Assembly (NCBI GenBank): GCA_002688105.1
Contig: NZBQ01000009.1
Location: forward strand, 21,389 to 63,555
From: Dehalococcoidales bacterium
GTDB taxonomy: Bacteria; Chloroflexota; Dehalococcoidia; Dehalococcoidales; GCA-2688105
Length of the DNA: 42,167 bases
Reading direction: 5' to 3'
Shown here piece by piece: positions 17,752-42,167 of the stretch. The stretch's first letter is position 1. Each line of letters begins with the position of its first letter. The translations under genes were made by a program, and so were the position numbers. The notes beneath the pieces were generated by a model. That model ran no database searches. It had not been told where the DNA came from and worked only from the letters and a program-made list of their open reading frames with translations.

Positions 17752-17776
17752 GGCTCGTCTGGTCGAGGTCAATTCA

Positions 17777-17802
17777 GGGGAAGGGGAATCCTCTCCTTCC
17801 CC
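17777..17802 (+). other. Intergenic stem-loop without U-tract (mRNA stabiliser or weak terminator)
   Basis: GGGGAAGGGGA-ATCC-TCTCCTTCCCC. Confidence 0.5.
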
Positions 17803-17825
17803 AATCCTGAAATGAGGTTAGGACC

Positions 17826-18149: not shown

Positions 18150-18182
18150 GACATCAACGGCAAGAAGAAAGGACTCAAATTC

Positions 18183-18542: not shown

Positions 18543-18557
18543 GACTGGAAATTTAAG

Positions 18558-20324: not shown

Positions 20325-20348
20325 GAAATTTAAAAATGGAGGGTTGGA

Positions 20349-20660
20349 ATGGAGAAGATAAAAGCATTATACATGTTTTTGGATGAAAGTGCTGATTCAA
20401 CCAAGCATCGGGCAACCGTGGATACCCCTAGCGTAACGCTGACAGTAGTCGGGGTTAGTAGCCCGGAAGTTGCCATCCAAACCGCCAAACAGTTGATACA
20501 AGAAGGTAAAGCAGAGCTGGTAGAGCTATGTGGTGCCTGTGGGTACAGGGTAGCCAAAGCAGTTTATGAGGCGGTAGGTGACCAGGCTCCAGTGGGTATG
20601 ACAGTCCATCAATTTGACAACGCGCCCAAAATATGCGAATTAATAAAGAAGTGGGGCTAG
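20349..20660 (+). CDS. DUF6506-like small protein
   Basis: LTVVGV..A..AKQL..G..LVELCGA pattern; GGAGG RBS. Confidence 0.7.
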   Translation: MEKIKALYMFLDESADSTKHRATVDTPSVTLTVVGVSSPEVAIQTAKQLIQEGKAELVELCGACGYRVAKAVYEAVGDQAPVGMTVHQFDNAPKICELIKKWG

Positions 20661-25022: not shown

Positions 25023-25063
25023 TGACTCGCCCCTTACTTGGTGAACTAATGAGATGAAGCTAT

Positions 25064-26287: not shown

Positions 26288-26354
26288 CTTAATCCCCCCA
26301 TTGGTTTTCCCTCAGCTTCTGCCTTTGAAGTTGAGGTATTGGTTCAACCAGAGA

Positions 26355-27347: not shown

Positions 27348-27365
27348 ATTTTCACCCTCTTGCCT

Positions 27366-28337: not shown

Positions 28338-28528
28338 AGCCCCCCTCCTTACAATCTTTTCACAGAGGTTAACACCAAAGTCACGACTCACCTACCAGTG
28401 AGGGTAAGTAAATTACCGACCCACTAGAACAAAAGCTACCGGTAGGATTTAGATGCAGATTATAAATTGTCAAAACACTTGCTTGCTCAACTGAAATAAG
28501 TTACCAAGTCAGGTAATTATAGCACAAC

Positions 28529-29122
28529 CTACACTTTCTCTAAAACAGGTAGCATATCAACTCCCGGAATTACTTTTTCCCCATCCTTGCCAACTATTTT
28601 CACCCTGGCACCTAAAGCAATTAAGACTGGAGCGGTATCTGATTGGAGAATCCTTTTTTGACAGCCCCTGTCTTCTTTATCCACATAACACACCTTACCA
28701 CCCAGTTTATAGCATGGCGTCCAGCTTCGATGCCAATCATGAGATTGATTATAATACCAGCACCTGGACTCCTGACAGATATTACCGGCGATGGAACCGA
28801 CATTCCTGACCTGGAGGTAAGCCACCCGGCCGGCAGCCTGAGCTAAAACACCGAGCTTTTCCTGAATTACCGAGGAAGTCTCTATAGCACGAAGGGTAGT
28901 TAAAGCACCGATTTTTATCCCGTTCCCGCCGTCTGAGTTAATATAAGCTAAACCGGGGATTCTCTTAAGGTTCACTAAGTAATGAGGTGTAACCACCTCC
29001 TGTTTCATCAGAACTAATACATCAGTACCACCGGCAATTAACTTCGCCTTCCCCTTATATTTCTTAAGTAGGGAGATCGCTTCCTCAACTGTTTTTGGTT
29101 CAAGGTACTCAAAGGTTTTCAA
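28529..29122 (-). pseudogene. 3'-truncated FAD subunit of xanthine dehydrogenase family (HcrB-like, FeS insert)
   Basis: FEYLEP, IAGGTD, IGALTTL, RNVGSIAGN, CQESRCWYY..CYK..C insert, SDTAPVL; similarity ends after EKVIP. Confidence 0.75.
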
Positions 29123-29279
29123 TACTTTACGTCTTCCCCCCAGATTTGTGATTACCTCTGGCAACCATTTAGCACATACTTACTCGCACGATTATCTCGC
29201 CGAGATCGGTCGGTTTTCCAATTTCCCGGCTTCTAATCAGGAACGAGACTTGCGGTAAGCTTCCTTCTTAATTATCCTA

Positions 29280-30479
29280 TTATTTCTTTTTCTTACGATA
29301 GATAAACTGGCAGTTTTGACAAGGACCGTATTCCAGAGCGAAGGTGCAGTAACCGGTGGGTTGTTCATCCTCAATTTCATCCTCTAAACCGGCAAGTTCG
29401 ATAACGTAATGGTTCACTCTAAGGGAAAGGGAATATTCGGTTTTGTAGTATGCCATTTTTCTGGCGTGAACATCAGGCGGTCCTAACTCCGGATTAGGAC
29501 ACCAATGCACTTCAGCAATCCACTCGTCTTCCGTATCCTTCACCACCTTATATCTTGAAGGCACATCAAGGAAGAATGCTTGATGTATTCTGCCTATGTC
29601 TCGGGCGGTCTTTGGCTTTTCCATACCTAACTTCTCCAAGGCGGCGTTGTAAGACATAACCAGCAACTGCTTCCAACACTCCCAATATAATTCTTCAGCT
29701 ATTTCCGGCCCAAATTCAGCATTCAGACACTTCCAGGTAAGGTAAACACCGGCATACTGATTTTTGGTCGCAATCAGCGCCTGTTCATCAGATGTCCGGT
29801 TGGTTACCGCCATACAATAGTCCAGAACATCGTCCAGGCTTAAGTCACGGCAGTCACCCAATCTCCCCTCTTTCTTGGCCGGCGCTACTTCCCCAGGTTC
29901 TTTCTTGGTCGTCTTCCACTCGTAGATGCCACGGCAAACATGGTCTGCCTTGTCCAGACAGGCAAATTTGTCTGCGGTAGCTACTACTTTATCTTCCAGC
30001 CCAGCCAACTCTATCAACCTGGGATAAATCCATTCTTCAGTGGCAGCAGCTGCCTTCAACCAGGTAGAATCCAAATCTTCACCAAAAACTTCTTTGGCTA
30101 TTTGAACCAAAGGACAAGCCAGGACAGTCATAGTAGCACGACCGGGTTCTTCGCTTATTTTAGAAGGACAAGGAGTTCCGTCATTGATAAACATTCGTAT
30201 CCGAACCAGCTTGTCAAGGTCATCCACTTTATCTATACCAAGTACTTCCTTAGCAGCTTTGAATGCCCCATCTACCACCGACTCCCACTTTTTGCGGTGC
30301 ATTTCTATGGCTTTTTCCGGCCCATACTTAGCTTCAACAGCAGCCACCAATTGATGGTCAACCGCCAGAGAGCCCACCATAGCCGCCTTAGCATGCTCAT
30401 ATGTAGACCTACCGGATTCCTTCAGCACCTCAAAAAACTCTCTTTCCTCAGGTTCAAGTTTTTTCATGTCCAGTACCAT
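29280..30479 (-). CDS. Hypothetical protein with two tandem ATC-hydrolase/V4R-like Cys-motif domains
   Basis: Repeated pattern (Y/F)GPE.A.E...W..LG...V..CP...C..C..IY.(W/K)K; AAGGAGGT RBS. Confidence 0.65.
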   Translation of the reverse strand: MVLDMKKLEPEEREFFEVLKESGRSTYEHAKAAMVGSLAVDHQLVAAVEAKYGPEKAIEMHRKKWESVVDGAFKAAKEVLGIDKVDDLDKLVRIRMFINDGTPCPSKISEEPGRATMTVLACPLVQIAKEVFGEDLDSTWLKAAAATEEWIYPRLIELAGLEDKVVATADKFACLDKADHVCRGIYEWKTTKKEPGEVAPAKKEGRLGDCRDLSLDDVLDYCMAVTNRTSDEQALIATKNQYAGVYLTWKCLNAEFGPEIAEELYWECWKQLLVMSYNAALEKLGMEKPKTARDIGRIHQAFFLDVPSRYKVVKDTEDEWIAEVHWCPNPELGPPDVHARKMAYYKTEYSLSLRVNHYVIELAGLEDEIEDEQPTGYCTFALEYGPCQNCQFIYRKKKK

Positions 30480-30545
30480 AGCATTAACCTCCTTTTAATT
30501 AATTTGTGGCTTACCGCTTAACCACATAATCAGAGTCTTAAGCCC

Positions 30546-31397
30546 TCACCTTTTCGGTGGAAAGTATAAATCTTCAGCTATATCAGCCACTCGCCTTAAA
30601 ATCTCGGGTCTGACGTCACGCAGCAATGGAAGGTCCAGCCTGGCCTGCGTGATGATATCAGGGTCTAATTCCCTCTGAATGATTTCGTCGTTAAGGTCCT
30701 CTCCATATTGTGCGCTCTCTATAATTTGAGCAGCGTTATCGACTATGCAGGAGCCGCCTTCAAAAACCACTCCTTCCTGTGGGCCAATCTCATTCACAAA
30801 GGCGAAAAAGGCTTGATTTTCCACTGCCCGGGCTTGGGCGAGAAGCCGGAAAACATCAGGGACTTTAAAAGGAGAAGCCGAAATGTTAAACAGCAGCCAG
30901 GCTCCCTGGAGCGCACAGCACCTCTCTATCTCTGGGAACCAGAAATCGTAACAAATTTCTACCCCAATTTTACCGAACCTGGTATCAAACACCTTGATGT
31001 CAAAGCCCGGTTTAAAGAAGAGATGCTCTTCGTATCGGACCCCGGCATATTCAAAGGTTACCAAATGGAGCTTTCGATAGACCCCTAAAACCCCGTCAGG
31101 CTCAATTAACACTGCTGAATTATGGGCTAAGCTCCCGTTCAACTCCGGCATACCGAAAAGGATATCAATGTTCTTATCTTTAGCCAGTTTGACCACTTTT
31201 TCAGTTGCAGGTCCTCCAATTGGTTCCGCATGTTCCAACCATCTTTTACCACATACATACCCGGTCAGAGCCATCTCAGGAAAGGCAACGAAGTCAGCCC
31301 CATCCTTGGCCGCCTGGCTGGAAAGGTCCAGAATCTTTTCCAGATTCCGCTTTTTGTTATGAAGCTCTGGCTTCATCTGCACTAAAGCTAATTTCAT
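30546..31397 (-). CDS. Carbon-nitrogen hydrolase (nitrilase family)
   Basis: Catalytic triad FPE, YRKLHL, ICYD; ARAVENQ. Confidence 0.93.
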   Translation of the reverse strand: MKLALVQMKPELHNKKRNLEKILDLSSQAAKDGADFVAFPEMALTGYVCGKRWLEHAEPIGGPATEKVVKLAKDKNIDILFGMPELNGSLAHNSAVLIEPDGVLGVYRKLHLVTFEYAGVRYEEHLFFKPGFDIKVFDTRFGKIGVEICYDFWFPEIERCCALQGAWLLFNISASPFKVPDVFRLLAQARAVENQAFFAFVNEIGPQEGVVFEGGSCIVDNAAQIIESAQYGEDLNDEIIQRELDPDIITQARLDLPLLRDVRPEILRRVADIAEDLYFPPKR

Positions 31398-31446
31398 AAA
31401 ACCTTCCCTCCTAAGATTTTGGGCTATATAGAAATTATCCTCAGGC

Positions 31447-32724
31447 TTACCACTCTATCCATCCGGTATCAACCGGACCTTCTCCTGCCCAGATCGTCTT
31501 GCCCGTTTTAGCATGAACGATAGAGATGGCACCAGTGGGGCAAATCCCGGCACAGAATCCACAACCCACGCACTCCACGTCATCTACCCCAATTTCGTCC
31601 TTATCTTTATCGGCACTTATAGCATCATGAATGCAGGTGATAACACACTGCATGCAGAAGTTACATTTGCCAACATCAAACTCAGGCAGAACAGGAGTGG
31701 ATACACTCTTTAGATCCAGCATTGCCTCTTCATGAGGAACATCTTTATATAGCTTCAGCTGAGGCAAAAGCTTACCTTTAAAGTCATTGATGCTGTTATA
31801 TCCTTTTCTCTCCATAAAGGCTTCAATTCCGTTAAGGATTTCGGGGAACACTCGCGCACCCTTAAAATATAGCGAAGAAACCATCTGAACCGTCGGACAG
31901 CCGAGAAGAATGTACTCGAGAGCATCCTCTGTCTTGAAAATGCCACCGCAGCCTGATACTTCAAGGTCACAGGCTTGTTTGATCTGAGCCACTTTGGCAA
32001 TTCCCCACCACTTCAAAGATGGCCCGGGAATATAACCGACCAGGGTGTTTGCTCCCCTGATTACTTCATTCTCCACATCAATTGAAAAGCCTCCAGGTGC
32101 ATTGACCGCCGTGCAGAAATCAGCCCCACCGTCCCTCTGAGCAATAACAGCTATCCTATCAAGCCTTCTAATGGTAGGTGAAAGTTTAATGCCGACGGGA
32201 ATATTTACTGCCTTCTTTACCGCGGCAGTCAGCCTGGCGGTAATCCCGGGGTCTTCTCCAAGCTCAATTTCATCGTAATTATCCGATTCTCCCGGCGCCA
32301 GCGGACAGCCTAAATCCAATTCAATGGCTTCAACCCCAGCCGCTTCTACCAACTGGGCTAACTCGCCCCAATCATCTAAGTCTGCCCCCCGACCAACAAT
32401 ACTCTGTATCCACCTGGCATTGTATTTCTGGCATATTTCCTTGAATCTTGGAGCCTCTTCTTTAGCCCAAACATCCGGGGGTATGGTGCTTAACAATTCC
32501 CCCTCTGTCATGGCTCCTTTTAGGCCATGCCTGCTTAACGGATAAAAGGTCGGCCTAATATAACTGCGTAACTTTGGGTCAGATGTTACCGTTTTGGCGA
32601 GTACACCGCCAGCCCCGGCTTTCAGCCATTTCTCGGTAACCTTCGCCCACTCGGTTATACCGGCACAACCGGCAATCAGCGGATTTTTAAAGGTCAATCC
32701 TACCATTCTCGTCTTTAGTGACAA
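31447..32724 (-). CDS. Dihydropyrimidine dehydrogenase PreA-like FMN protein with C-terminal 2x[4Fe-4S] domain, divergent
   Basis: FKNPL, KT, ELDLGCP, KLSP, SGCGGI, CNFCMQCVITC and CVGCGFCAGICP; TTG at 32724 after AAGGGGAG. Confidence 0.85.
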   Translation of the reverse strand: MSLKTRMVGLTFKNPLIAGCAGITEWAKVTEKWLKAGAGGVLAKTVTSDPKLRSYIRPTFYPLSRHGLKGAMTEGELLSTIPPDVWAKEEAPRFKEICQKYNARWIQSIVGRGADLDDWGELAQLVEAAGVEAIELDLGCPLAPGESDNYDEIELGEDPGITARLTAAVKKAVNIPVGIKLSPTIRRLDRIAVIAQRDGGADFCTAVNAPGGFSIDVENEVIRGANTLVGYIPGPSLKWWGIAKVAQIKQACDLEVSGCGGIFKTEDALEYILLGCPTVQMVSSLYFKGARVFPEILNGIEAFMERKGYNSINDFKGKLLPQLKLYKDVPHEEAMLDLKSVSTPVLPEFDVGKCNFCMQCVITCIHDAISADKDKDEIGVDDVECVGCGFCAGICPTGAISIVHAKTGKTIWAGEGPVDTGWIEW

Positions 32725-32802
32725 CTTAACTCCCCTTTCTTTTTCGAGATAAAGAAATCGCATTATACCCAGAGACACATATTAGTCTCGCAATAATGAA
32801 AT

Positions 32803-33732
32803 TTAGACTTCTCCCTTGATGTAAGGGACAGCCAACTTCCTAGGCGGAACAGCTTTCCTCACCACACCGACTATACCGACTAAGACAATTACGGTTACAA
32901 CATAGGGCAACATAAGGAGTAGCGGGAACGGGACAGGAACTCCTGCCGCCTGCAGCTGCATCTGTAGGGCATCAATAAAAGCAAACAGAAGTGAACCACC
33001 AAGTATACCCCACGGGTTCCACCCGCCGAAGATGACAATACAAAGAGCTATAAATCCACGGCCGGCGGTCATATTCTCACTGAATCTATGTAATACTGCT
33101 AATGGTAGATATGCCCCACCAAATCCTGACATGGCACCAGTGATAAGAACACTGAGGTAACGCATTTTGGGGACACTGTATCCAGCCATATCAACTGCTA
33201 ATGGGTTCTCCCCCGTTGCTCTAACAAGTAAACCAAAGCGTGTCCGGAACATAATAAGGGCAAAAACGACAACCAAAAGCATGGCAATGTAAAACAGGAC
33301 ATTCTGCTGGAAGATGACTGGACCGATTCCAGGGAGGTCGCTCAGCACTGGTATTTGAACAGATGCAAAACCATCTAGAGGGTCCGTGATGCCCACTGTT
33401 CTAAATATAAAGGAACTAATTCCCATACTAAACAGCCATATGGCTATGCCACTGATTATCTGGTTAGTTTTAAATGTTATCGACAAACAGGCGTGGACTA
33501 GACTGAGCGCCGCACCGGCCAGCATTCCTATAACTATGCCAAACCACACATTGCCGGTAGTAACCGCCGCAAGGTATGAGGCTACAGCACCCATTAACAT
33601 ATATCCTTCAACACCTACGTTATATACTCCAGACCGCTCTGAAACTGCCTCACCCAACGACGGAACGAGCAAAGCAAAACTCATCCGTAGGGTAGCCGCT
33701 AACACCGGGATTATAAGTGGGTAAAAATCCAT
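32803..33732 (-). CDS. ABC transporter permease (nucleoside/BMP-associated)
   Basis: SERSGVYNVGVEG, RATGENP, AGRGFIAL, MLPY. Confidence 0.92.
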   Translation of the reverse strand: MDFYPLIIPVLAATLRMSFALLVPSLGEAVSERSGVYNVGVEGYMLMGAVASYLAAVTTGNVWFGIVIGMLAGAALSLVHACLSITFKTNQIISGIAIWLFSMGISSFIFRTVGITDPLDGFASVQIPVLSDLPGIGPVIFQQNVLFYIAMLLVVVFALIMFRTRFGLLVRATGENPLAVDMAGYSVPKMRYLSVLITGAMSGFGGAYLPLAVLHRFSENMTAGRGFIALCIVIFGGWNPWGILGGSLLFAFIDALQMQLQAAGVPVPFPLLLMLPYVVTVIVLVGIVGVVRKAVPPRKLAVPYIKGEV

Positions 33733-33760
33733 ATATCTACCCCTCCCTTTTAACAATCAG

Positions 33761-34825
33761 TTAATCATGATGAATCTTAAATAGATTTTCAAAGCGTTGC
33801 TCTAGGAATGGCAGTAGCACCAAAGCCAACATAATGACAGCCACTAATACATGAACCACGGTAACATCAAGGCCAAGACTTGACTGAACATAATGGCTCC
33901 CAGATAATAACCCTCCCAGGAATATCGCCATAATCACTGCCCCCAGAGGATGCAACCTTCCAACAAAAGCAACTACTATGGCTAGAAACCCGTAACTAAC
34001 AGAAATATTATCTGCCAGCACATGGAAAATCCCTGATACCTGAGCCATCCCGGCAATACCAGACAGACCACCACTTAAAATCATAGAAGTTACAACAATT
34101 TTCCTAACCGGTATACCACCATACAATGCTGTATCAGGATTTACACCTACAGCTTTAATATGATAGCCGTAGGTACTCTTTTGCAAAATGAACCAGACCA
34201 CTACTGCCAGTACCAAGGCTATTATGAATCCCGCATGTGCGCCAGTTCCCGGCAGTATTGGCAGCCAGGCGGTAGGCCATATTTGTTCACTTACCGGAAA
34301 ACCGGCCGCAGTAGTTGACCTCCACGGAAACTTTATCAAATAAGATACAAACCATACAGCAATGAAAACCATGAGTAGAGAAGTGATGATTTCGTTGGTA
34401 TTGAATCTGGCTCGTAAATATCCAGGTATTGCTCCCCATACCGCCCCAAAAATGAAGGCAAATATAACCATTAAGAGAATCTGCAACGGCCCGGGTATAC
34501 TGGGAACAAAATATCCGGCTATAAGAGCCCCTACTGCTCCCATATACAATTGCCCTTCAGCACCTATGTTCCATATTCCAGCCCTGAATACCAGTAAAAG
34601 TCCTAAAGCACAAAATAGAAGAGGGGTCGCCTGATTTAGCGCCTGACCTAGCCTATGTAAACTCCCAAAGCCTCCGCTAAACAAGCCCAAAAACACTTCT
34701 CCGGGATTGAACCCGGAAATAGCAACTAAAATTGAAGTAATCCCAAATGCTACAGCAAACACGATTAATAAAGGGATTACCTTGCTAAGATAATAGCCCC
34801 GCCTTGGGGATAAACGTAATCTCAC
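33761..34825 (-). CDS. ABC transporter permease (nucleoside/BMP-associated)
   Basis: ATPLL, WNIGAEGQ, NEIITSL, GRLHPLG. Confidence 0.92.
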   Translation of the reverse strand: MRLRLSPRRGYYLSKVIPLLIVFAVAFGITSILVAISGFNPGEVFLGLFSGGFGSLHRLGQALNQATPLLFCALGLLLVFRAGIWNIGAEGQLYMGAVGALIAGYFVPSIPGPLQILLMVIFAFIFGAVWGAIPGYLRARFNTNEIITSLLMVFIAVWFVSYLIKFPWRSTTAAGFPVSEQIWPTAWLPILPGTGAHAGFIIALVLAVVVWFILQKSTYGYHIKAVGVNPDTALYGGIPVRKIVVTSMILSGGLSGIAGMAQVSGIFHVLADNISVSYGFLAIVVAFVGRLHPLGAVIMAIFLGGLLSGSHYVQSSLGLDVTVVHVLVAVIMLALVLLPFLEQRFENLFKIHHD

Positions 34826-34827
34826 TG

Positions 34828-36360: not shown

Positions 36361-36573
36361 CTCACCCTCCAAACCAGCCTCATAGATATCTCCTCTGACG
36401 AAAGTTCTAATCTATTTACCATACTGAAGTCTGAATCCGCTCGACAGAATTATCTATAAAACTGCCATTACATATTTTACCCTACATCACATCGCACACC
36501 GACATACCCGCACTTTCTATGGCGTGCAGTCTATAAGTCAAATTACGCACCAAGTTCGCATCTCCAGGCAACC

Positions 36574-36601
36574 CTTGGGCAAGTCCTAAGACCTGCCCAA
36601 G
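36574..36601 (-). terminator. Stem-loop downstream of the binding-protein gene (partial terminator or stabiliser)
   Basis: CTTGGGCAGGTC-TTAG-GACTTGCCCAAG on the minus strand. Confidence 0.55.
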
Positions 36602-36673
36602 AATCACCCCTTCTCCTCCCCTTTCCCTAGAGTAGAGAGGATAAAGTAAAGCCGACTACGAAGTGATCAAAGT

Positions 36674-37834
36674 TCAGGGTAATTCTATGCCTAGTTCTTC
36701 AGCAGATGGTATATCGTAGTCATCAGGCCATACGGTCCCTATATAGTTTAGGGTTCTTAGCGACGGGACGTGTATCACCTCGGTGGCGATAGCCTCGGTG
36801 AGTTTGTCAGCTACAGCCGCGATTTCATCTGACACATTACTCACTGGAGCGATAGCTGGCCAGCCTTGTATGAGGGAATAATTAGAGGCCGTATGCGTAA
36901 TGGTGCCAGATCTGTAGTCCAGTAAGGCGCGTTCTGCCAAGAGATAATGGTCCAGAAGAACACTGGTTAGGATTATGTCAGGCGCCATGTCATGTTGATC
37001 ACGGACAACTCCTACAAACCATTTATTTTCCTCTTGGGCGGCCTTAAGAACTCCTAAGCCAGACTCATCGGCGTACTGAAAAATCACATCAGCACCCGTG
37101 GCAATCATCGCTTGGGCACTCTCATAGCCCTTCTCTGGGTCAATCCAACTGCCAACCACCATGAACTCCACTTGTATATCCGGATTAACCCACTTAGCCC
37201 CCAACTCCATACCGGTACCACACCTAATTAGCTCCGGATAATCAACGCCAACAACCAGGCCAATATGTTGGGCCTCTGACTTCATAGCGGCGATAGCTCC
37301 AGCTATGAAATAACCCTGTTCCTCTCTCCGGTCATAACCAGCAACATTACGTGGCAGCAGAGCAATCACCCCGGCATCAGAACCAGGTACAGCATACCAG
37401 GTATCCGGGTATTTAGGGGAAACCGCTTTCATAGCCTCACCCCAGGTTTGGCCGGAATCAGTGTAAAGAAGCTCAGTCCCCAACTCCCCTTGTACCTCCA
37501 GGAACGTAGGAAAATCACCCCAGGGAACCAAATCAGTAAAGGTGATATCAACTATATCCCCATACCTATCCTGGAGATATAGGTAAGCTTCGTAAATACC
37601 TTGAGACCAGGCGCCATCTGTCCTCGACCCAATGGTGGCGACGGCCACCGTGGTCTTCTCAACTTCCGGGACCGGGGCCGGTGCTGGCGCTGGGGCCGGG
37701 GCCGGTGCTGGGGCCGGTGCTGGCGCTGGGGCCGGGGCCGGTGCCGGGGCCGGTGCTGGAGCGGCACAACCAGCAATAGCTAATCCCGTTACCACTACCA
37801 CTGCAATCAGTAGCATTACCATTCTATTTTTCAT
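36674..37834 (-). CDS. BMP-family ABC substrate-binding lipoprotein
   Basis: Lipobox IAGC, DGAWSQ, GAKWVNPD, GSWIDP, GADVIF, GVVRDQ. Confidence 0.92.
   Translation of the reverse strand: MKNRMVMLLIAVVVVTGLAIAGCAAPAPAPAPAPAPAPAPAPAPAPAPAPAPAPVPEVEKTTVAVATIGSRTDGAWSQGIYEAYLYLQDRYGDIVDITFTDLVPWGDFPTFLEVQGELGTELLYTDSGQTWGEAMKAVSPKYPDTWYAVPGSDAGVIALLPRNVAGYDRREEQGYFIAGAIAAMKSEAQHIGLVVGVDYPELIRCGTGMELGAKWVNPDIQVEFMVVGSWIDPEKGYESAQAMIATGADVIFQYADESGLGVLKAAQEENKWFVGVVRDQHDMAPDIILTSVLLDHYLLAERALLDYRSGTITHTASNYSLIQGWPAIAPVSNVSDEIAAVADKLTEAIATEVIHVPSLRTLNYIGTVWPDDYDIPSAEELGIELP
37673..37762 (-). repeat. Coding (Ala-Pro)15 repeat with 36-nt higher-order duplication
   Basis: Hexamer repeat; blocks starting at 37674 and 37710 are identical for about 35 nt. 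Confidence 0.9.
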
Positions 37835-37981
37835 TTATTGTAACCTCCTATTCTTCCCGTAGTACCACATAGAACTGAAACTCGTCTTACTCTTCCTATA
37901 GGCACCCACCTCCTTCATAATGAGATTATCAATTAAGCGTTACAACAGACTTAAAATAGTTTCCACCAAATTTACCTAGAC

Positions 37982-38011
37982 ACGATACATTAAGAATACA
38001 AAACAAGTCAA
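37982..38011 (-). promoter_or_regulatory. Putative internal promoter of the ABC transporter operon
   Basis: TTGACT-N18-TATCGT on the minus strand. Confidence 0.4.
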
Positions 38012-38030
38012 GTCCAAACCTACGAATTTT

Positions 38031-39263
38031 TCAGTCTTTCTTGGAAGTTCCTTTCATCATTTCATCAAACAACATTACTGCCTTCTCCGAGAAAGCCGGG
38101 TCATTGATAGTCATATCCAGTTCAATAAACCTAACTGCGCTAGGATTTATCTTTTCCCTTATTACCTCAATGAATCTCCGACGACCTTCAGGGTCATGCA
38201 TCGGTGTCCCCTCTTCATCCAGCCGGGAAAAACTCCGAAGCGGGATTAGTAAAACGACAGGCCCTTTTGCTTTGTTTAGCCTCTCCGCCATTATCTCGGC
38301 TATTTCCACCTTCTCTTCTTGGCTAACCGGCACCTGAGCCGTCAAAGGATTGTGCCATCTAACCTCTCGGTTCTTATATTTCGCTGGCAGGGTATCTATG
38401 GCTCCGTTCCACTGGAACCAACTTATAGCACCCGGAGCAACAACCTGCGGAATACCCGTTTCACCGGCCGCCGTTAACTTCTCGTCACCGCCTTTAATCA
38501 CGCCACCACACACATAATTGGCTATCTCAAACATCGTGAAATCCAGTATGCCATCAATGTGTCCCTGTCTGATGAGAGTCTCGCAAGTCTTCATCCCTAT
38601 GGAATGGAAGACCGCCGGGTCATACCCCCTCTCAATAAGCATGTCCGAGCAATAATCGACGTGAGAAAATGCCGATGCACCCAGCGTGGTTATCGCTACC
38701 AACGGCTTCTCATCCTTTTCCTCCTGCTGGGTTTCCACCATGCCGCTTATCGCTCCAGCCGCCCTCCTCAATACCATCTTCGTTACTCTGTCCACACCAC
38801 ACGAATGCGTAACCGATTGCATCATTACCTGGTCCATCGCCACCGACTCGGGCGTCACCAATGCCGTATAGGTTATCGTCGATACCATTAACTTCGGGAT
38901 ATTAAACGGAAGCTCCTTCATCACCTTCAAACAAAGGGATGTCCCCATAGACCCACCAAGTCCAACTATGCCATCCAACTTTCCACCCGAAAGTAGCCTC
39001 TGAATAATATTTGAAGCTCCCTCAGCCATCACCGATATAGCTTCCGCTTCCTCCATGCCGGCAATCTCCTTGATGTCCTTCCCAATCGCCTTAGCTACTT
39101 CCTCATGAGTTACATCAGACTTAAAAGGAGGCTCCTTTAAGGCAGTACAAACATCTACCACTATGGTATTATGACCCCTCTCCCTGATGCGGTCTCTGAT
39201 ATATGCCGCCGCCTTACCTCTGGTATCTAAGGTAGCAATAATGGTGATACTCTTACTTTGCAT
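38031..39263 (-). CDS. Tm-1-like ATP-binding domain protein (UPF0261)
   Basis: IATLDTRG, GLGGSMGT, PKLMVST, VFHSIG, PQVVAPGA, HNP, INDPAF. Confidence 0.88.
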   Translation of the reverse strand: MQSKSITIIATLDTRGKAAAYIRDRIRERGHNTIVVDVCTALKEPPFKSDVTHEEVAKAIGKDIKEIAGMEEAEAISVMAEGASNIIQRLLSGGKLDGIVGLGGSMGTSLCLKVMKELPFNIPKLMVSTITYTALVTPESVAMDQVMMQSVTHSCGVDRVTKMVLRRAAGAISGMVETQQEEKDEKPLVAITTLGASAFSHVDYCSDMLIERGYDPAVFHSIGMKTCETLIRQGHIDGILDFTMFEIANYVCGGVIKGGDEKLTAAGETGIPQVVAPGAISWFQWNGAIDTLPAKYKNREVRWHNPLTAQVPVSQEEKVEIAEIMAERLNKAKGPVVLLIPLRSFSRLDEEGTPMHDPEGRRRFIEVIREKINPSAVRFIELDMTINDPAFSEKAVMLFDEMMKGTSKKD

Positions 39264-39296
39264 AAGTTATCCCCTCAACTATTTGGCTCTCTTTCT

Positions 39297-40943
39297 TTAA
39301 GCATTTTGCCTGGTTAGATAGTCCCCTATCTTTTGCCCCGCCGGGGACGACTCAGCCAACTTTAGCAGTTTATTTAAATCCTCATCCTGGTCAAGACTTA
39401 CCACTGGTACCTCCCCAAGTATTACCTCACCACTGCTTCCGTCGATAGAAATCTTATCCCCTTCCCTTATTATAGTGCCTTCAGGCATTCGGCACTGCTT
39501 GTCCTTATACTCAATACAAATTCCCTGGCATCCAACCACTGATGGTTTTCCCAGGTCACGGCATATAATAGCGGCGTGGCTAGAGGTACCACCCCTAGAA
39601 GTAACCAAACCCACAGCTGCCTTAATCCCGGCAACATCGGCCGGGGAAGTTTCTTGTCGCACCAGGATTACTTGTTCTCCCTTACCTTTCCAAACCAGAG
39701 CATCTTTAGGGGTAAAGACGACACGACCACTAACCACACCTGGAGAAATAGGAATCCCTGAGGTAATAACTTTTTTCTCGACAGAGTCAAGCTGAGTAGC
39801 CACTGACTGTTCCAACTGCTCCGTTGAGATTCTTGATAAGGCTTCTTCCTTAGTTATTAACCCCTCCTCCACCATATCAACAGCTATTTTTATCGCTGCC
39901 TTAGGCGTCCGTTTAGCGGTTCTACTCTGTAGCATAAAAAGTCTGCCTTCATCCACCGTGAATTCAACATCCTGAACGTCTTTATACCTCTTCTCCAATT
40001 TCTCCAAAGTTTTCTCTAAGGCAGGGTACACTTCCGGCATCTCTTCTCTTAGCTCCTCAATTTCTTTTGGTCTCCTGGTTCCCGCAACCACATCCTCTCC
40101 CTGGACATTCGTCAGATACTCACCATAGAGTCCTCTATTCCCCGTAGATATGTCCCGTGAAAAAACGACACCCGAACATGAGTTATCCCCACTATTGCCG
40201 AAGACCATTGTCTGAACGGTTACCGCCGTGCCCGGGAGGTCACCCGATATGTTTTTCATCCGGCGATACTCAATCGCCCTTGGGGTATTCCACGATTGGA
40301 ATACCCTGCCGATAGACCTCCACAACTGCTCATCAACACTTTCCAGAAAACTCTTACCATGTTTCTGGAAAACTTCCTCGAACTCCTGGGTGACATCTCG
40401 CAGGTCCTCCACTTCAAGCTGGGTTTCAGAGGTTAAATTCCCTTCGCTAACCTTATTCCTGATTATTATGTCAAACTCGCCATCTTCTATCCCCTCAACA
40501 GCAGTTCCAAAGCTTTGTAAGAGACGCCGATAGCAGTCCCACACAAACCAAGGGGCTTTATTATTCTTAATCAGCCTATCCACAATACTCCTGTTCAAAC
40601 CTATATTGAGCACTGTGTCCATCATGCCAGGCATAGAAACGGCTGCCCCAGAACGAGCCGAAACAAGAAGATGGTTTTCTGGGTCCCCAAACTTCCTGCC
40701 CGTGGCTCTCTCCAGCTTCCTGAGATTCGCATTAACCTCGTCTTTTAGCCCTGGTGGATACTGGCCTTCACCAGTGTAATATTTACCGACTTCGGCGGAT
40801 ATTATAAAGCCCGGAGGCACAGCTATTCCGATACTAGCCATATCCGCCAACCTAGCCCCTTTATTACCTAATATATCCCGTATTTCAAGGCTACCTTCAC
40901 CCTCACCGCTTTGGAAAAAGTAAACACGCTTCTCTACGCCCAT
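39297..40943 (-). CDS. Pyruvate phosphate dikinase-like protein: nucleotide-binding and phospho-His domains only
   Basis: LGNKGA, VPPGF, RSGAAVSMPGMMDTVLN, QTMVFGN, QGEDVVAG, QDVEFT, LQSR, GGTSSHAAI; ends at 548 aa without the pyruvate-binding barrel. Confidence 0.88.
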   Translation of the reverse strand: MGVEKRVYFFQSGEGEGSLEIRDILGNKGARLADMASIGIAVPPGFIISAEVGKYYTGEGQYPPGLKDEVNANLRKLERATGRKFGDPENHLLVSARSGAAVSMPGMMDTVLNIGLNRSIVDRLIKNNKAPWFVWDCYRRLLQSFGTAVEGIEDGEFDIIIRNKVSEGNLTSETQLEVEDLRDVTQEFEEVFQKHGKSFLESVDEQLWRSIGRVFQSWNTPRAIEYRRMKNISGDLPGTAVTVQTMVFGNSGDNSCSGVVFSRDISTGNRGLYGEYLTNVQGEDVVAGTRRPKEIEELREEMPEVYPALEKTLEKLEKRYKDVQDVEFTVDEGRLFMLQSRTAKRTPKAAIKIAVDMVEEGLITKEEALSRISTEQLEQSVATQLDSVEKKVITSGIPISPGVVSGRVVFTPKDALVWKGKGEQVILVRQETSPADVAGIKAAVGLVTSRGGTSSHAAIICRDLGKPSVVGCQGICIEYKDKQCRMPEGTIIREGDKISIDGSSGEVILGEVPVVSLDQDEDLNKLLKLAESSPAGQKIGDYLTRQNA

Positions 40944-41503
40944 TCATCCCTCTCTTTGCCTAAAAGATTAATAAGATCCTCATGTAACTCGAACCATATA
41001 GTATGATAGGAATCCACACTGTATTTGGCTAGGTACTCTGTCTTGCCATCCTTAAGGTTCTGGAGAGCCCGGCTAAACCGGCTGGGATAAATTTCATACC
41101 TCGGAACTAGCTCGGTTAACCCCTGGAAAATTTCACCTACCCTAGCATGAACACCTTCTAACTCATCAAGAGCCTTTTGGTCATCCTTTCCTATCTGCCA
41201 TTCACTCACTATCTTTTTGAAAGTATTATTCTCCTCATCAAACTTTTCATAGACAGTTTCCAACTCCTTCTCCCGACCTTCCACCTCGGCTTTTCTAAAT
41301 TGACTAATCGCTTCTTCTCCGCTTTCAGTGAGCATCCACATACCATTATCCTCAGAAATATAACCCGTTTTAACACAGCCACCAAATAGTTCTCTCGTCT
41401 TGGCCGGCTCCATTTCAACTATTGAGGCGATAACATCCGGGTCTTCTATTGCCTGCCTGATATTTATATAGTTGAGAATCTTAAATTCATCCAGTGACAC
41501 CAT
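40934..41503 (-). CDS. Hypothetical protein, N-terminal winged-helix-like region plus DSYHxxWFELHEDL motif (Rv1126c-like)
   Basis: GYI...WMLTESG wing pattern; DSYHTIWFELHEDL; 10-nt overlap with the PPDK-like gene. Confidence 0.7.
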   Translation of the reverse strand: MVSLDEFKILNYINIRQAIEDPDVIASIVEMEPAKTRELFGGCVKTGYISEDNGMWMLTESGEEAISQFRKAEVEGREKELETVYEKFDEENNTFKKIVSEWQIGKDDQKALDELEGVHARVGEIFQGLTELVPRYEIYPSRFSRALQNLKDGKTEYLAKYSVDSYHTIWFELHEDLINLLGKERDEWA

Positions 41504-41587
41504 AATACTACCATCCCTTATAGACTTTATCGTCCCAAGAAAACTTATAATTTCAGAAATTCAAGATTTCCTTGAGTTGATTCTAGC

Positions 41588-42167
41588 TCAAACACGTTTA
41601 AGAATTGTCACAATGCCTTCATCACCATCCACCCTGATAATATCCCCGGTCTTGATTTTACGGGTGGCAACCCTGGTGCCCACAACGGCGGGAACCCCTT
41701 CTTCCCGGGCAATGATAGCCGCATGACACATGTTCCCACCGGCATCCAGCACTACGCCTTTGCTCCTTACCAGAACCGGCCCCCAGGCCGGCGCTGTCGA
41801 AGACGTAACCAGGATATCACCATTCTTTACCTTATAGCTCTCTGAGAATCTGGGGATGACTACGGCCGGCCCTTCAGTAACACCAGCCGAGGCGGCTACA
41901 CCATTCACCACATCACTTTCCTCTTCCTCAGCCCTTTCCCATTCTTCCAGCCTCTCCTTGGTTATGCCCCATAGCATTACCGTAGATGGGTCAGAAAACT
42001 CTCCCTCAGGAAATACCCCAAGCAAGGTAGGAGGAGTATACTCACATAACTTCTCCCACATCATTTTTCTCTTGGCCACCTTCTTCTTCCAGTAAATATC
42101 CTTCACCGGTATGCCTACACCCCACGCCTGACAGACATCAAATATTACCTCATCTAATTCATACCTC
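41588..42167 (-). CDS. PEP-utilising phospho-His-domain enzyme, phenylphosphate synthase subunit A (PpsA)/CreH-like, 5'-truncated by window edge
   Basis: Frame open to the edge (RYELDEVIFDVCQAWGVG..YW); DP..MLWGIT, GVAASAG..EGPA, TAPAWGP, GGNMCHAAIIARE. Confidence 0.78.
   Translation of the reverse strand, partial: RYELDEVIFDVCQAWGVGIPVKDIYWKKKVAKRKMMWEKLCEYTPPTLLGVFPEGEFSDPSTVMLWGITKERLEEWERAEEEESDVVNGVAASAGVTEGPAVVIPRFSESYKVKNGDILVTSSTAPAWGPVLVRSKGVVLDAGGNMCHAAIIAREEGVPAVVGTRVATRKIKTGDIIRVDGDEGIVTILKRV

Follow-up and report, generated by a model that had tools for sequence, protein, structure and literature searches.

A same-strand accessory gene island of separable modules in a Dehalococcoidia-type bacterium and its possible role in N-heteroaromatic catabolism

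The region under study lies on the minus strand of the window (the whole 42,167-nucleotide stretch of DNA that was analysed) and appears to form the 3' two-thirds of an accessory catabolic island, which spans about 30 kb, holds about 25 genes and is organized in separable modules. Tentatively, the island most likely serves the oxygen-independent catabolism of a hydroxylated N-heteroaromatic compound rather than of a nucleoside or pyrimidine, and sequence comparison indicates that a key enzyme of the island was lost here by deletion. As in the original prediction, the region is best read as an undescribed set of catabolic genes that breaks down an N-heterocycle without oxygenases, although the cluster extends further and is more composite in make-up than was described there.

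Extent and composition of the island

Each gene that the original prediction had assigned to a single strand was recovered there and at its place by ORF, Pfam and NCBIfam analysis (Table 1). The window contains no ambiguous N bases, and its last position (42167) is a contig end and not a biological boundary. Its contig (C9) joins contig C11 through an exact, in-frame 99-nt overlap that is confined to these two contig ends and is one of only two end-to-end matches among 46 contigs. Across the join lies the 5' part of the swivel-His protein (447 codons, NF006153 positions 4-447), so that the complete protein is about 606 aa long. C11 also adds, on the same strand, an intact three-subunit molybdenum (Mo) hydroxylase (FAD, 2Fe-2S and MoCo subunits), a DUF1989 protein and an MttB/corrinoid pair, resulting in 25 genes in a row on one strand. 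This Mo hydroxylase heads the array and is one of four complete ones in the genome.

The accessory status of these genes is indicated by the absence of the tandem-Cys protein from all 40 relatives, and of E1alpha, UPF0261 and the reductase subfamily from each of the three congeners searched. Neither a riboswitch nor a regulator points to the substrate, and an Rfam search returned only a tRNA. The host is a marine (sediment-type), Dehalococcoidia-type organism with a small genome (1.33 Mb) of the streamlined type.

Table 1. Features of the island and adjoining genes in the window
Feature	Position	Strand	Basis
PpsA-like / PRK08296-type PEP-utiliser swivel-His protein, C-terminal 192 aa	41588-42167 (ORF 41588-42166)	-	PEP-utilizers domain; NF006153 positions 415-608
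189-aa ORF P0001	40934-41503	-	10-nt overlap with next gene
PPDK N-half, ATP-grasp nucleotide-binding + mobile His domain	39297-40943	-	PPDK_N, PEP-utilizers; NF004531 470.9 bits (cut-off 456)
UPF0261 (Tm-1-like), both domains	38031-39263	-	Pfam; 9mpy_A E 3.5e-46 over 4-403
Bmp-family substrate-binding lipoprotein, (Ala-Pro)n linker	36674-37834	-	PF02608 129.6 bits
ABC ATPase of Bmp-type importer	34828-36372	-	Pfam, NCBIfam
Permease of Bmp-type importer	33761-34825	-	Pfam, NCBIfam
Permease of Bmp-type importer	32803-33756	-	Pfam, NCBIfam
PreA-like FMN / 2x[4Fe-4S] ene-reductase (DHO_dh + 2x[4Fe-4S])	31447-32778	-	PreA 193.5 bits (cut-off 335)
Carbon-nitrogen (CN) hydrolase, Nit/omega-amidase-like	30546-31397	-	PF00795 191.7 bits; triad Glu41/Lys109/Cys149 intact
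399-aa tandem V4R/Bet3-like (phenol-sensor-like) Cys-motif protein	29280-30479	-	Structure model, fold match
Relic: N-terminal 211 codons of HcrB-like FAD/[4Fe-4S] Mo-hydroxylase subunit	28529-29164	-	FAD_binding_5 only, without CO_deh_flav_C
Deletion junction, ~200 nt without counterpart	28362-28564	-	blastn break points vs L004
E1alpha of 2-oxoacid dehydrogenase	27366-28391	-	Pfam, NCBIfam
E1beta of 2-oxoacid dehydrogenase	26355-27347	-	Pfam, NCBIfam
E2 of 2-oxoacid dehydrogenase	25064-26287	-	Pfam, NCBIfam
E3 of 2-oxoacid dehydrogenase	23637-25022	-	Pfam, NCBIfam
Lipoyl ligase/transferase-family protein	22893-23618	-	PF21948
Radical-SAM protein	22054-22920	-	PF04055

The reductase cassette and its deleted hydroxylase

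The reductase shares with the enzymes of reductive pyrimidine catabolism (PreT/PreA or DPD) its fold, the FMN Lys residues, the catalytic Cys and the C-terminal 2x[4Fe-4S] domain; its top NCBIfam match is PreA, its top PDB match is pig DPD, and its counterpart in metagenome locus L002 is fused to Fer4_20 and Pyr_redox_2, which completes the DPD domain set. A variant uracil/thymine pathway could be envisaged on these grounds, in which the reductase yields dihydrouracil, the tandem-Cys protein substitutes for dihydropyrimidinase, the CN hydrolase (a superfamily that includes beta-ureidopropionases) acts as beta-ureidopropionase and the Bmp importer takes up the base or nucleoside. ATC hydrolase, a weak relative of the tandem-Cys protein, is likewise followed by a carbamoyl amidase in its own pathway. 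Such a pathway is nevertheless very improbable. The PreA score falls well below its cut-off, and the subfamily is discrete and rare, comprising 26 clusters at no less than 51% identity before a fall to 33%. The pocket retains the catalytic Cys158, whereas the three base-binding Asn residues of DPD are changed at two positions (Asn668 to Asp155 and Asn609 to Glu92); judged from these residues, the reductase does not act on uracil. The CN hydrolase has much stronger matches to Nit proteins (3ivz, 1.8e-33; Nit2 2w1v, 5.6e-29) than to beta-ureidopropionases (about 1e-11 to 1e-13), and neither the Mo hydroxylase of the relatives' cassette nor the attached 2-oxoacid dehydrogenase would have a role in uracil reduction.

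The partners of a canonical pathway are missing as well. The window holds no PreT-type Fer4_20 match (the four in the genome are on C8, C5, C2 and C11), and the only TIGR02033 protein above cut-off, a true dihydropyrimidinase homolog (439.8 vs 393.25), resides in a purine-type cluster on C35. The absence of PreT and dihydropyrimidinase noted in the original prediction therefore holds, and no canonical gene for either lies just outside the window, where C11 carries the intact Mo hydroxylase instead. Of the two substrate classes that had been proposed, the N-heterocycle is retained, whereas the PreA score, the reductase pocket and the Nit-like hydrolase make a nucleoside or uracil unlikely.

A paralog of the reductase (61% identity) adjoins another CN hydrolase on C33. 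After this pair come genes for PrpD-like, succinyl-CoA-synthetase-like and HpcH/CitE-like lyase proteins, an arrangement consistent with a dicarboxylate product. The only other species genome with this reductase subfamily belongs to Thermoleophilia (68% identity); there the gene adjoins ATP-dependent lactamase-type genes (HyuA/HyuB) and omega-aminotransferases, and CN hydrolase is absent at the locus.

The tandem-Cys protein is predicted to adopt a double V4R/phenol-sensor-like fold (pLDDT 88.4, pTM 0.87). Both halves of the model resemble the DmpR and PoxR phenol-sensor domains as well as the Bet3/V4R folds (VIA-align Z 8.8, 8.6 and 9.8 for DmpR, PoxR and Bet3, respectively), a fold class of mostly ligand-binding proteins with few enzymes. 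Atlas leads point to DUF6125 and ATC hydrolase, with family matches below the Pfam cut-offs, indicating that the protein is distantly related to the ATC_hydrolase/DUF6125 families. It could act as a ring-opening hydrolase or as a ligand-binding subunit.

The core genes co-occur elsewhere, a point on which the original prediction had been open to refutation. In metagenome loci L002, L003 and L004, the reductase, CN hydrolase and tandem-Cys protein are followed by a full Mo hydroxylase, and the window's reductase, CN hydrolase, tandem-Cys and FAD-subunit genes are syntenic with these loci at 72-83% nucleotide identity, so the arrangement is not due to chance. L002 and L003 are 99% alike, and the cassette is thus represented by three lineages, the window included. 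The hydroxylase of the relatives is nicotinate-dehydrogenase-like with split MoCo subunits; the L004 MoCo-L subunit has the large subunit of Eubacterium barkeri nicotinate dehydrogenase as its top match over the full length (3hrd_A, E 9.4e-94).

In the window, only a relic of this enzyme is found. The truncation recognized in the original prediction is confirmed, but the fragment is now identified as the remainder of a second, cassette-specific Mo hydroxylase, which, by comparison with L004, was removed by a 3.6-kb deletion. The relic aligns with 1rm6_B (E 1.7e-25) at every Cys of the Fe-S insertion, and intact FAD-subunit homologs of 328-339 aa are present in L002-L004. The junction stands in for 3.57 kb of L004 that encodes the remainder of the FAD subunit together with the 2Fe-2S subunit and the split MoCo subunits. 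It includes a promoter-like site (28544-28516) ahead of E1alpha, which is a 10/12 consensus match and nothing beyond that. The cassette is therefore incomplete here, and the route may be broken.

The cassette could accordingly be a non-functional remnant that is decaying after loss of its hydroxylase, as the deletion, the truncated subunit and the small genome of streamlined type would suggest. The relic also has an omega of 0.21 (window vs L002), against 0.14 between intact copies. This reading is improbable, since none of the three proteins (reductase, CN hydrolase and tandem-Cys protein) is truncated, their catalytic or Cys motifs are intact and their omega values of 0.05-0.10 indicate purifying selection, although all omega values are rough because dS is near saturation (0.7-2.1). 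The relic itself is free of frameshifts across the 186-193 codons that can still be aligned, with every cluster Cys retained, and the four other complete Mo hydroxylases of the genome include the one in the same array.

Phosphorylation, import and dehydrogenase modules

The phosphorylation module combines a split dikinase with a UPF0261 protein. The ATP-grasp component lacks the PEP/pyruvate barrel and covers TIGR01828 only at positions 2-525 of 865. P0001, which has no Pfam or NCBIfam family match, is matched in 13 of 300 other genomes of the class, in 12 cases within frames of 476-1051 aa, and at five of six loci examined this dikinase domain is fused to the C-terminus of a PPDK-N-like protein. 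The Tm-1-like (UPF0261) protein is, by full-length alignment, a homolog of the MarK-type aromatic kinase, with Arg at an ATP-contact position and Gly195, His219, Phe283 and His304 kept. Orthologs of UPF0261 (79% identity) and of the reductase (69%) are both labeled 'Deltaproteobacteria bacterium' with a longest contig of 17036; as a lead only, this common label and value suggests that the two may share a contig. By analogy with the 3hpd cluster described below, the more probable partner of the phosphorylation module is the upstream Mo hydroxylase on C11.

The Bmp lipoprotein scores 86 bits against its top NCBIfam equivalog (cut-off 400), and its gene is flanked by gaps of 196 and 301 nt. In L002, a Bmp-type permease lies directly upstream of the reductase as in the window, the first 139 nt of that locus matching the window permease at 33115-32977 (90.6%, blastn). 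Two other places in the genome also have a Bmp importer next to CN hydrolases or PpsA-like genes.

The dehydrogenase complex has a PDH-like heterotetrameric E1, with E1beta and E3 above the PDH/Lpd cut-offs; such an alpha/beta E1 is an unusual type for 2-oxoglutarate or 2-oxoadipate. The adjoining radical-SAM and ligase/transferase genes are probably its lipoylation genes, the radical-SAM protein being tentatively assigned as LipA from its position. The original prediction had placed the cassette directly upstream of the dehydrogenase. This position is upheld, and the complex is probably a member of the unit and not simply a neighbor, being accessory in the genus and, from E1alpha to E2, syntenic after the L004 cassette despite a different upstream context, although this shared adjacency could reflect descent alone.

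A somewhat unlikely alternative holds that the modules are functionally unrelated neighbors lined up head to tail in a small genome of high gene density, namely a Mo hydroxylase operon coupled to a dikinase, an importer, a reductase cassette that has decayed and a pyruvate dehydrogenase operon of housekeeping-like character. In L004, a GntR regulator and a LIV-type ABC importer take the place of the kinase genes and Bmp importer, leaving modules A and B (defined below) unlinked to module C there; L003 has no oxoacid dehydrogenase after its cassette; and in the relatives examined within the class Dehalococcoidia, the dikinase pair is accompanied by none of UPF0261, Mo hydroxylase and Bmp. The gaps around the Bmp gene, the promoter-like site before E1alpha, the dehydrogenase's own lipoylation genes and its PDH/Lpd scores point the same way. 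Against this are the run of 25 genes on a single strand, the L002 permease, the L004 dehydrogenase, the repeated Bmp neighborhoods and the joint absence of the dehydrogenase, UPF0261, reductase subfamily and tandem-Cys protein from the three congeners. The single linear route of import, activation, reduction and hydrolysis in the original prediction is, however, not upheld, given the L004 cassette and the solitary dikinase pairs.

Proposed route and related systems

Module A, partly on C11, would comprise the Mo hydroxylase, the DUF1989 protein, the MarK-like UPF0261 protein and a split phenylphosphate-synthase-like dikinase (the PpsA-like swivel-His protein, the 189-aa domain and the ATP-grasp/His protein), and may phosphorylate and hydroxylate a hydroxylated (hetero)aromatic ring with water-derived oxygen. 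The closest parallel is the 3hpd cluster of Ensifer adhaerens HP1, where HpdA1-A4 are accompanied by orf9 ('pyruvate-phosphate dikinase') and orf10 ('PEP-utilising mobile subunit'), and the Mo hydroxylase HpdA needs the adjacent PEP-utiliser and PPDK-like proteins, the dikinase role being unexplained (bioRxiv 10.1101/2020.01.08.898148). In both systems, as far as the gene descriptions allow, a multi-subunit Mo hydroxylase directly adjoins a two-protein dikinase, and the substrate (3-hydroxypyridine in 3hpd, the proposed class here) is a hydroxylated N-heteroaromatic. Unlike 3hpd as described there, the present array has extra DUF1989, free 189-aa and UPF0261 components in an oxygenase-free context, and the C11 genes showed no SRPBCC subunit. 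MarK (UPF0261) and the dikinases AcvAB, HpeHI and PpsAB are described as phosphorylating phenolic hydroxyls (PMC12624787), and homologs of both kinds of kinase are adjacent here. In contrast to that account of lignin monomers, the context is of N-heterocycle type, His348 (which binds the ketone of acetovanillone in MarK) is Leu, and a carboxylase or phosphatase partner is absent from this locus, while C10 has such a set.

With module B, the Bmp-type ABC importer, supplying uptake, module C would act on the resulting lactam or pyridone: the ene-reductase would saturate a ring C=C, the tandem V4R-like, ATC-hydrolase-like Zn/Cys protein would bind and probably open the ring, and the Nit/omega-amidase-like hydrolase would remove the amide nitrogen to give a (2-oxo)dicarboxylate. 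Nicotinate fermentation in E. barkeri, outlined in PMC9304392 with NdhFSLM, 6-hydroxynicotinate reductase and enamidase, follows the same logic of Mo hydroxylation, partial ring saturation and hydrolytic opening, and the relatives' hydroxylase shares its L/M split of the MoCo subunits and most resembles NdhL (3hrd). By comparison with that outline, the present reductase belongs to the DHOD/DPD family, the ring would be opened by other proteins, an HcrB-type Fe-S insertion is present in the FAD subunit, the gene set continues with a CN hydrolase and a 2-oxoacid dehydrogenase, and the hydroxylase is deleted in the window. The same source outlines the Aspergillus hxn route (ring reduction, cyclic imidase, amidase) and an Arthrobacter/Rhodococcus route from 2,3,6-trihydroxypyridine through alpha-ketoglutaramate to omega-amidase (PMC9304392). 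These late steps, in which a saturated or hydrolytically opened ring yields a half-amide and then a C5 (oxo/hydroxy)dicarboxylate, resemble the Nit2/omega-amidase-like hydrolase followed by a 2-oxoacid dehydrogenase here, although reduction and ring opening in those routes, as outlined, are assigned to other protein families.

Module D, the 2-oxoacid dehydrogenase with its lipoylation genes, would convert the (2-oxo)dicarboxylate into an acyl-CoA. In relatives, module C includes its own nicotinate-dehydrogenase-like hydroxylase with the HcrB-type extra Fe-S cluster; with that enzyme deleted, the cassette of this bacterium would have to rely on module A or on substrates that are already oxidized.

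Gene content of the island and its continuation on a second contig

Every gene between positions 20754 and 42167 of the window lies on the minus strand (ORF calls, with identities from Pfam and NCBIfam), and each item in the gene list of the original prediction is present among them (see table). Downstream of the dehydrogenase, the same strand carries lipoyl-ligase-family, radical-SAM and M20 amidohydrolase genes. A small plus-strand group adjoins a tyrosine recombinase; its adenine-deaminase-like amidohydrolase scores 384.9 bits against a cut-off of 472.5. The far end of the window contains squalene-hopene cyclase (1-1257) and squalene/phytoene synthase (1259-2299) genes, and the genome is small and of the Dehalococcoidia type.

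Features of the window discussed in this section, with strand and basis of identification
Feature	Positions	Strand	Basis
PRK08296-type swivel-histidine protein, C-terminal 192 aa	41588-42166	-	Pfam/NCBIfam
189-aa ORF, no family match	40934-41503	-	Pfam/NCBIfam
PPDK-like N-half (PPDK-N): ATP-binding and mobile His domains, without PEP/pyruvate barrel	39297-40943	-	Pfam/NCBIfam
UPF0261 (Tm-1-like) protein	38031-39263	-	Pfam/NCBIfam
Bmp lipoprotein, ABC ATPase and two permeases	32803-37834	-	Pfam/NCBIfam
DHO_dh + 2x[4Fe-4S] protein, best family PreA	31447-32778	-	193.5 bits, cut-off 335
CN hydrolase	30546-31397	-	Pfam/NCBIfam
Cys-rich 399-aa (tandem) protein	29280-30479	-	Pfam/NCBIfam
211-aa protein, first domain only of Mo-hydroxylase FAD subunit (relic)	28529-29164	-	Pfam/NCBIfam
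E1alpha, E1beta, E2 and E3 of 2-oxoacid dehydrogenase complex	23637-28391	-	Pfam/NCBIfam
M24 protein (weak DddP-like match), 107-aa ORF without assignment, cupin, amidohydrolase, DUF6506 protein	16429-20660	+	
Tyrosine recombinase	15105-16013		

The assembly comprises 46 contigs (1.33 Mb, 91% complete), and the end of the window (C9:21389-63555) is the end of its contig, C9. Contig C11 ends in a 99-nt stretch that exactly matches the final 99 nt of C9 in reverse complement; this 99-mer is unique in the genome, and the whole assembly has only 2 end-to-end matches of such a kind. The overlap is in frame, with positions 4-447 of the PRK08296-type family encoded on C11 and 415-608 on C9. Joining the same-strand genes of C11 to the window therefore yields a 25-gene array of about 30 kb. 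The original prediction had hinged in part on canonical preT and dihydropyrimidinase genes not lying just beyond the window; neither is there, the joined genes encoding an Mo hydroxylase, a DUF1989 protein and an MttB/corrinoid pair.

The array on C11 is headed by a corrinoid protein and a non-pyrrolysine MttB-family methyltransferase without an in-frame stop (locus L027, 11657-13761). A 376-nt gap separates this pair from an Mo hydroxylase with its full complement of subunits: 308 aa (FAD), 159 aa (2Fe-2S) and 759 aa (MoCo). The MoCo subunit has 4-hydroxybenzoyl-CoA reductase alpha as its best solved relative (E 2.7e-87), and the DUF1989 gene follows the hydroxylase genes. A second non-pyrrolysine MttB and corrinoid pair on contig C12 (locus L153, 3322-5940) is divergent from CN hydrolase and Bmp importer genes, the Bmp protein and two permeases sharing 49-71% identity with the window's counterparts. 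Both pairs may act on N-methylated substrates, such as N-methylpyridinium osmolytes. DUF1989 proteins have a role in carboxyguanidine deimination. A guanidine- or creatinine-type substrate, hinted at by the DUF1989 gene and the nearby M24 gene, was rejected on finding no carboxylase or allophanate hydrolase in the array.

Divergently upstream of the C11 array lie molybdate-type ABC transport, MobA-like, YqeC and XdhC-like genes. The same contig carries a SelD gene (C11:8455-9378) with one in-frame TGA, probably encoding selenocysteine. YqeC and XdhC-like genes are presumably markers of selenium-dependent hydroxylases, and their company with SelD fits an enzyme of this kind.

An Rfam gathering scan of the window and 20 kb of C11 returned only a tRNA (6283-6354) and no riboswitch or other RNA clue to a ligand. 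Promoter-like sites number 38 against 26.3 expected and terminator-like sites 27 against 17.2; the scan revealed no clear intergenic terminator and so was not used for operon definition.

A rare cassette and its truncated hydroxylase

The tandem protein is confined to 11 clusters in a search of 5.8 billion proteins, and in a 1.84-billion library 64 representatives reach E <= 1e-3, most of them single domains about 185 aa long. It was found in none of the 40 relatives searched (0/40), and none of 83 pattern matches in species genomes was confirmed. Its gene occurs on six metagenome loci, three of which (L002, L003 and L004) are long enough to read. The original prediction required its core genes to co-occur elsewhere, and the cassette order is indeed kept in 3/3 readable loci: reductase, CN hydrolase and tandem protein, followed by a complete Mo hydroxylase with a split MoCo subunit (FAD 328-339 aa, 2Fe-2S 160-161 aa, MoCo 430-456 + 341-346 aa). 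Because L002 and L003 are 99% alike, the arrangement represents three lineages including the window. L003 has an additional DUF169 gene inside the cassette.

In the window, homology to these loci ends at 28564 and restarts at 28362, corresponding to L004 positions 11807 and 15380. These break points place the missing segment at 3.57 kb, covering the remainder of the FAD subunit along with the 2Fe-2S and the two MoCo subunits. An NdhFSLM-type set of FAD, 2Fe-2S, L and M genes is complete in L003 and L004 (4/4 genes), whereas the window retains 211 FAD codons. The L subunit of L004 matches the large subunit of E. barkeri nicotinate dehydrogenase end to end (3hrd_A, E 9.4e-94), and for the cassette FAD subunit an unbroken alignment was obtained only with the 4-hydroxybenzoyl-CoA reductase beta subunit. 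The relic itself gives one continuous alignment of 190 residues with 1rm6_B, in which all Cys of the extra-cluster insertion are aligned; it covers positions 1-187 of the 321 in TIGR03195, and the protein ends thereafter. The Cys-rich insertion of HcrB-type subunits carries an extra [4Fe-4S] cluster.

Omega values, which are rough because dS is 0.7-2.1, are 0.05-0.10 for the reductase, CN hydrolase and tandem protein; equally rough, at the same dS, are those for the relic, 0.21 for the window compared with L002 and 0.14 for the intact copies compared with each other. That the cassette is a dead remnant is among the less likely explanations and distinctly improbable, the loss of the hydroxylase genes standing beside these low ratios in the three other cassette genes.

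The surroundings of the cassette differ among loci. L004 carries E1alpha, E1beta and E2 downstream, at 72% nucleotide identity to the window; upstream, where the window has the Bmp genes and kinases, it has DUF2284, a GntR-type regulator and an ABC system of the LIV type. L003 continues after the cassette with a protein without assignment, YqeC, an XdhC-like protein and an integrase, and the first 139 nt of L002 match the window permease at 90.6%. Among three congeners (completeness 80, 93 and 67%), UPF0261 and the reductase subfamily are each found in 0/3; E1alpha is likewise found in 0/3, and in 7/37 other families of the order at <=48% identity. These contexts and congener searches mark the island in its entirety as accessory.

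The dehydrogenase is more likely part of this unit than a housekeeping neighbour. Its E1beta (395.2 vs 321) and E3 (576.7 vs 408.8) score above the curated cut-offs for the pyruvate dehydrogenase (PDH) complex, whereas E1alpha (355 vs 393.85) and E2 (334.7 vs 445) score below them. The adjacency of cassette and dehydrogenase in L004 and the window is possibly due to shared descent. The main rival explanation, that the modules serve unrelated substrates, agrees with the replacement of importer and kinases in L004 and is less easily squared with the dehydrogenase again following the cassette in that locus; it is considered unlikely, though it is the strongest of the competing accounts.

Enzymes of the cassette and the phosphorylation module

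The PreA-like reductase falls below the PreA equivalog cut-off (NF006183). In pig DPD (1gt8_A), Cys671 is taken here to be catalytic and Asn609, Asn668 and Asn736 to bind the pyrimidine. The reductase keeps Cys671 (as Cys158) and Asn736 (as Asn226), whereas Asn668 is replaced by Asp155 and Asn609 by Glu92, the latter in a column beside a gap and less certain; it therefore lacks the full PreA/DPD set of catalytic Cys and three Asn. Asp155 is invariant in 15/15 subfamily members. The subfamily is discrete, with 26 clusters at >=51% identity and the next at 33%, and its members span Chloroflexota, Thermoleophilia and MAGs labelled Deltaproteobacteria and Bathyarchaeia. A pattern scan of 185,579 species genomes yielded one member, in a Thermoleophilia MAG (68% identity); the next match is at 35% and the other 78 kept loci at 27-31%. 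Neighbours of the Thermoleophilia gene encode an IclR regulator, an ABC importer, HyuA/HyuB of the ATP-dependent hydantoinase/oxoprolinase family and two class-III aminotransferases.

The reductase occurs in two architectures, a stand-alone form of 422-443 aa and an 888-aa form in L002 (330-2996). In the latter, an internal 1.46-kb insert codes for Fer4_20 and Pyr_redox_2, which sit after the barrel and ahead of the C-terminal ferredoxin domain; DPD has its domains in a different order. As for a PreT-type partner, no Fer4_20 match occurs within the window, and a copy on contig C8 adjoins a PyrK-like protein. Nor does the locus contain a dihydropyrimidinase: the sole protein at TIGR02033 level in the genome is on contig C35, in a purine-type cluster (locus L032, 2506-11492) together with OTCase-like, carbamate-kinase-like, M20 and three-subunit Mo hydroxylase genes, a set that, as we understand it, resembles anaerobic purine/urate clusters. 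A uracil or thymine pathway, to which the PreA family assignment would point, is very improbable in view of the altered pyrimidine-binding positions. From its sequence, we read the enzyme as a putative reductase of the C=C bond in a lactam, imide or pyridone that is unsaturated, not in uracil.

A second reductase copy in the genome, on contig C33 (locus L151, 4969-13771; 61% identity), adjoins another CN hydrolase (36% identity), directly after which the contig ends. Further genes there encode a PrpD-like protein, succinyl-CoA-synthetase-like alpha and beta subunits, an HpcH/CitE-like lyase and a flavoprotein (FAD_binding_2). These genes probably make up a sister pathway whose end product is a C4-C6 dicarboxylate.

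The CN hydrolase possesses a Glu41/Lys109/Cys149 triad. Its nearest PDB relatives are Pyrococcus nitrilase-like proteins and Nit2/Nit3 (E 1e-25 to 1e-33). Nit-type entries (1e-29 to 1e-33) rank ahead of carbamoylases (1e-20 to 1e-23) and beta-ureidopropionases (about 1e-11 to 1e-13). It reaches 137 bits against the N-carbamoylputrescine amidase model, with a cut-off of 410.

The tandem protein has a structure model of pLDDT 88.4 and pTM 0.87, and a whole V4R/Bet3-like domain is recognizable in each half. VIA-align matches both halves to folds of the Bet3/V4R type, among them the domains by which DmpR and PoxR sense phenol, at Z 8.6-9.8 (2cfh_A, Z 9.8 over 237-398; 6iy8_A, Z 8.8 over 36-195; 5fru_A, Z 8.6 over 1-194), and the MJ1460 V4R domain follows at Z 6.3; best Z values of 7-8 are common for models without a clear Foldseek match. 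Foldseek of this model against the PDB gave no match at E <= 1e-3 (E-values 6e-3 to 1e-1). All 9 orthologues compared retain Cys104, Cys122, Cys174 and Cys182 in the first half and Cys222, Cys327, Cys378 and Cys390 in the second, with only Cys122, Cys174 and Cys182 common to distant tandem relatives. ATC_hydrolase (PF14196, 25.4 vs 28.1) and DUF6125 (PF19620, 23.1 vs 27) stay under Pfam gathering and are leads also in precomputed labels and Atlas. The protein is a candidate ring-opening hydrolase or ligand-binding subunit.

In the phosphorylation module, the UPF0261 domains score 204.7 and 153.5 bits (cut-off 27). According to a 2025 report, the UPF0261 protein MarK uses ATP to phosphorylate phenolic hydroxyls; the report gives the heterodimeric dikinases AcvAB and HpeHI as alternatives to it and lists Lys16, Gly195, Thr196, His219, Phe283, Ile285, His304 and His348 as substrate/ATP-site residues (PMC12624787). 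The window protein matches MarK (9mpy_A) over its full length (E 3.5e-46, residues 4-403 vs 5-402). By eye, the alignment keeps Gly195, His219, Phe283 and His304, with Arg at ATP-contact position 16 and the changes Thr196 to Ala, Ile285 to Trp and His348 to Leu.

The 189-aa ORF overlaps the PPDK-N gene by 10 nt (40934-40943). Elsewhere in the class its homologues form a domain at the C-terminus of a PPDK-N-like protein, with a match in 13/300 class genomes and fusion in 5/6 fetched loci; the sixth, L130, was left out because the ORF filter had retained a longer frame that overlaps it. In 2/6 of these loci the neighbouring gene is PpsA-like, and homologues of UPF0261, Mo hydroxylase or Bmp were not seen there. 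The domain order in the window is permuted relative to the fused proteins, and the split is a gene fission with rearrangement.

The genome holds three UPF0261 genes, at least 5 PRK08296-type genes and four complete Mo hydroxylases. On contig C10 (locus L028, 60-6870), PPDK_N, PpsA-like, UPF0261, BKACE and oxaloacetate-decarboxylase-alpha-like carboxyltransferase genes stand in a row, a set that looks like phosphorylation followed by carboxylation of the acetophenone/acetovanillone type. Contig C7 has PpsA-like, Bmp and two permease genes together. On contig C16 (locus L034, 3567-13629), a beta-eliminating lyase of the tryptophanase/tyrosine-phenol-lyase family lies between the 2Fe-2S and MoCo genes of an Mo hydroxylase, followed by a LIV-type ABC importer.

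By gene content and order, the head of the present array is of the 3hpd kind, in which an Mo hydroxylase stands beside a dikinase pair: on C11 the FAD, 2Fe-2S and MoCo genes and DUF1989 are followed, once the 99-nt join is made, by the genes for the PpsA-like and PPDK-N proteins. A separate SRPBCC subunit, HpdA3 of the 3hpd cluster, has no match among the C11 genes scanned. According to the 3hpd report, HpdA1-A4 of Ensifer adhaerens HP1 converts 3-hydroxypyridine only with an adjacent PEP-utiliser mobile protein and 'pyruvate-phosphate dikinase', a need left unexplained there (bioRxiv 10.1101/2020.01.08.898148).

A proposed route for N-heteroaromatic degradation

The best-supported reading, tentative and somewhat short of an even chance, is that the island is composite, works without oxygenases and serves to break down a hydroxylated N-heteroaromatic. 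The substrate would enter through the Bmp ABC system and be phosphorylated and hydroxylated by the dikinase/UPF0261/Mo hydroxylase module, after which the PreA-like reductase would saturate the ring. Ring opening, with the tandem V4R-like protein as candidate, would be followed by deamidation by the Nit-like hydrolase, and the dehydrogenase complex would then oxidatively decarboxylate the oxo-acid so formed. One article describes precedents for this step logic: the nicotinate fermentation of E. barkeri, the hxn route of Aspergillus, and the route from trihydroxypyridine through alpha-ketoglutaramate to omega-amidase (PMC9304392). Searches of open-access literature provided no precedent for the protein set as a whole. 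The aerobic homarine pathway homABCDER was rejected as a model, being oxygenase-type and unrelated to the island genes (PMC13236597).

A more specific version envisages an unprecedented redox-balanced, oxygen-independent dismantling of a pyridine- or pyridone-type ring by the cassette. Water-derived oxygen would be inserted by a hydroxylase that resembles nicotinate dehydrogenase and bears an additional Fe-S cluster of the HcrB type, and the two electrons would go directly to the DHOD-family FeS/FMN reductase, saturating the same ring. A new enzyme family with two phenol-sensor-like (V4R) domains would open the lactam, and an omega-amidase-like hydrolase would deliver a 2-oxo-dicarboxylate to the dedicated 2-oxoacid dehydrogenase complex. 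Upstream, dikinase and UPF0261 would activate a ring hydroxyl by phosphorylation, and MttB/corrinoid may first demethylate an N-methylpyridinium osmolyte (trigonelline, homarine). That all these steps hold jointly is quite unlikely.

To our knowledge, the removal of N-heteroaromatics by marine-sediment anaerobes is largely unexplained beyond the nicotinate fermentation of one Clostridium-type organism. The compounds in question include pyridines, pyridones, imides and methylated osmolytes, and the anaerobes may be strict or facultative. The island offers a compact, expressible cassette, in which a reductase of a discrete subfamily within the DHOD/DPD family is joined by a CN hydrolase and a new tandem protein of V4R-like type, together with a natural deletion variant that tells which cassette parts are dispensable. 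It also adds another case of the unexplained coupling between Mo hydroxylase and dikinase, here with a MarK-type kinase attached, and solving this coupling would give functions to the 'hypothetical' families PRK08296, UPF0261, DUF6125/ATC-hydrolase-like and DUF1989.
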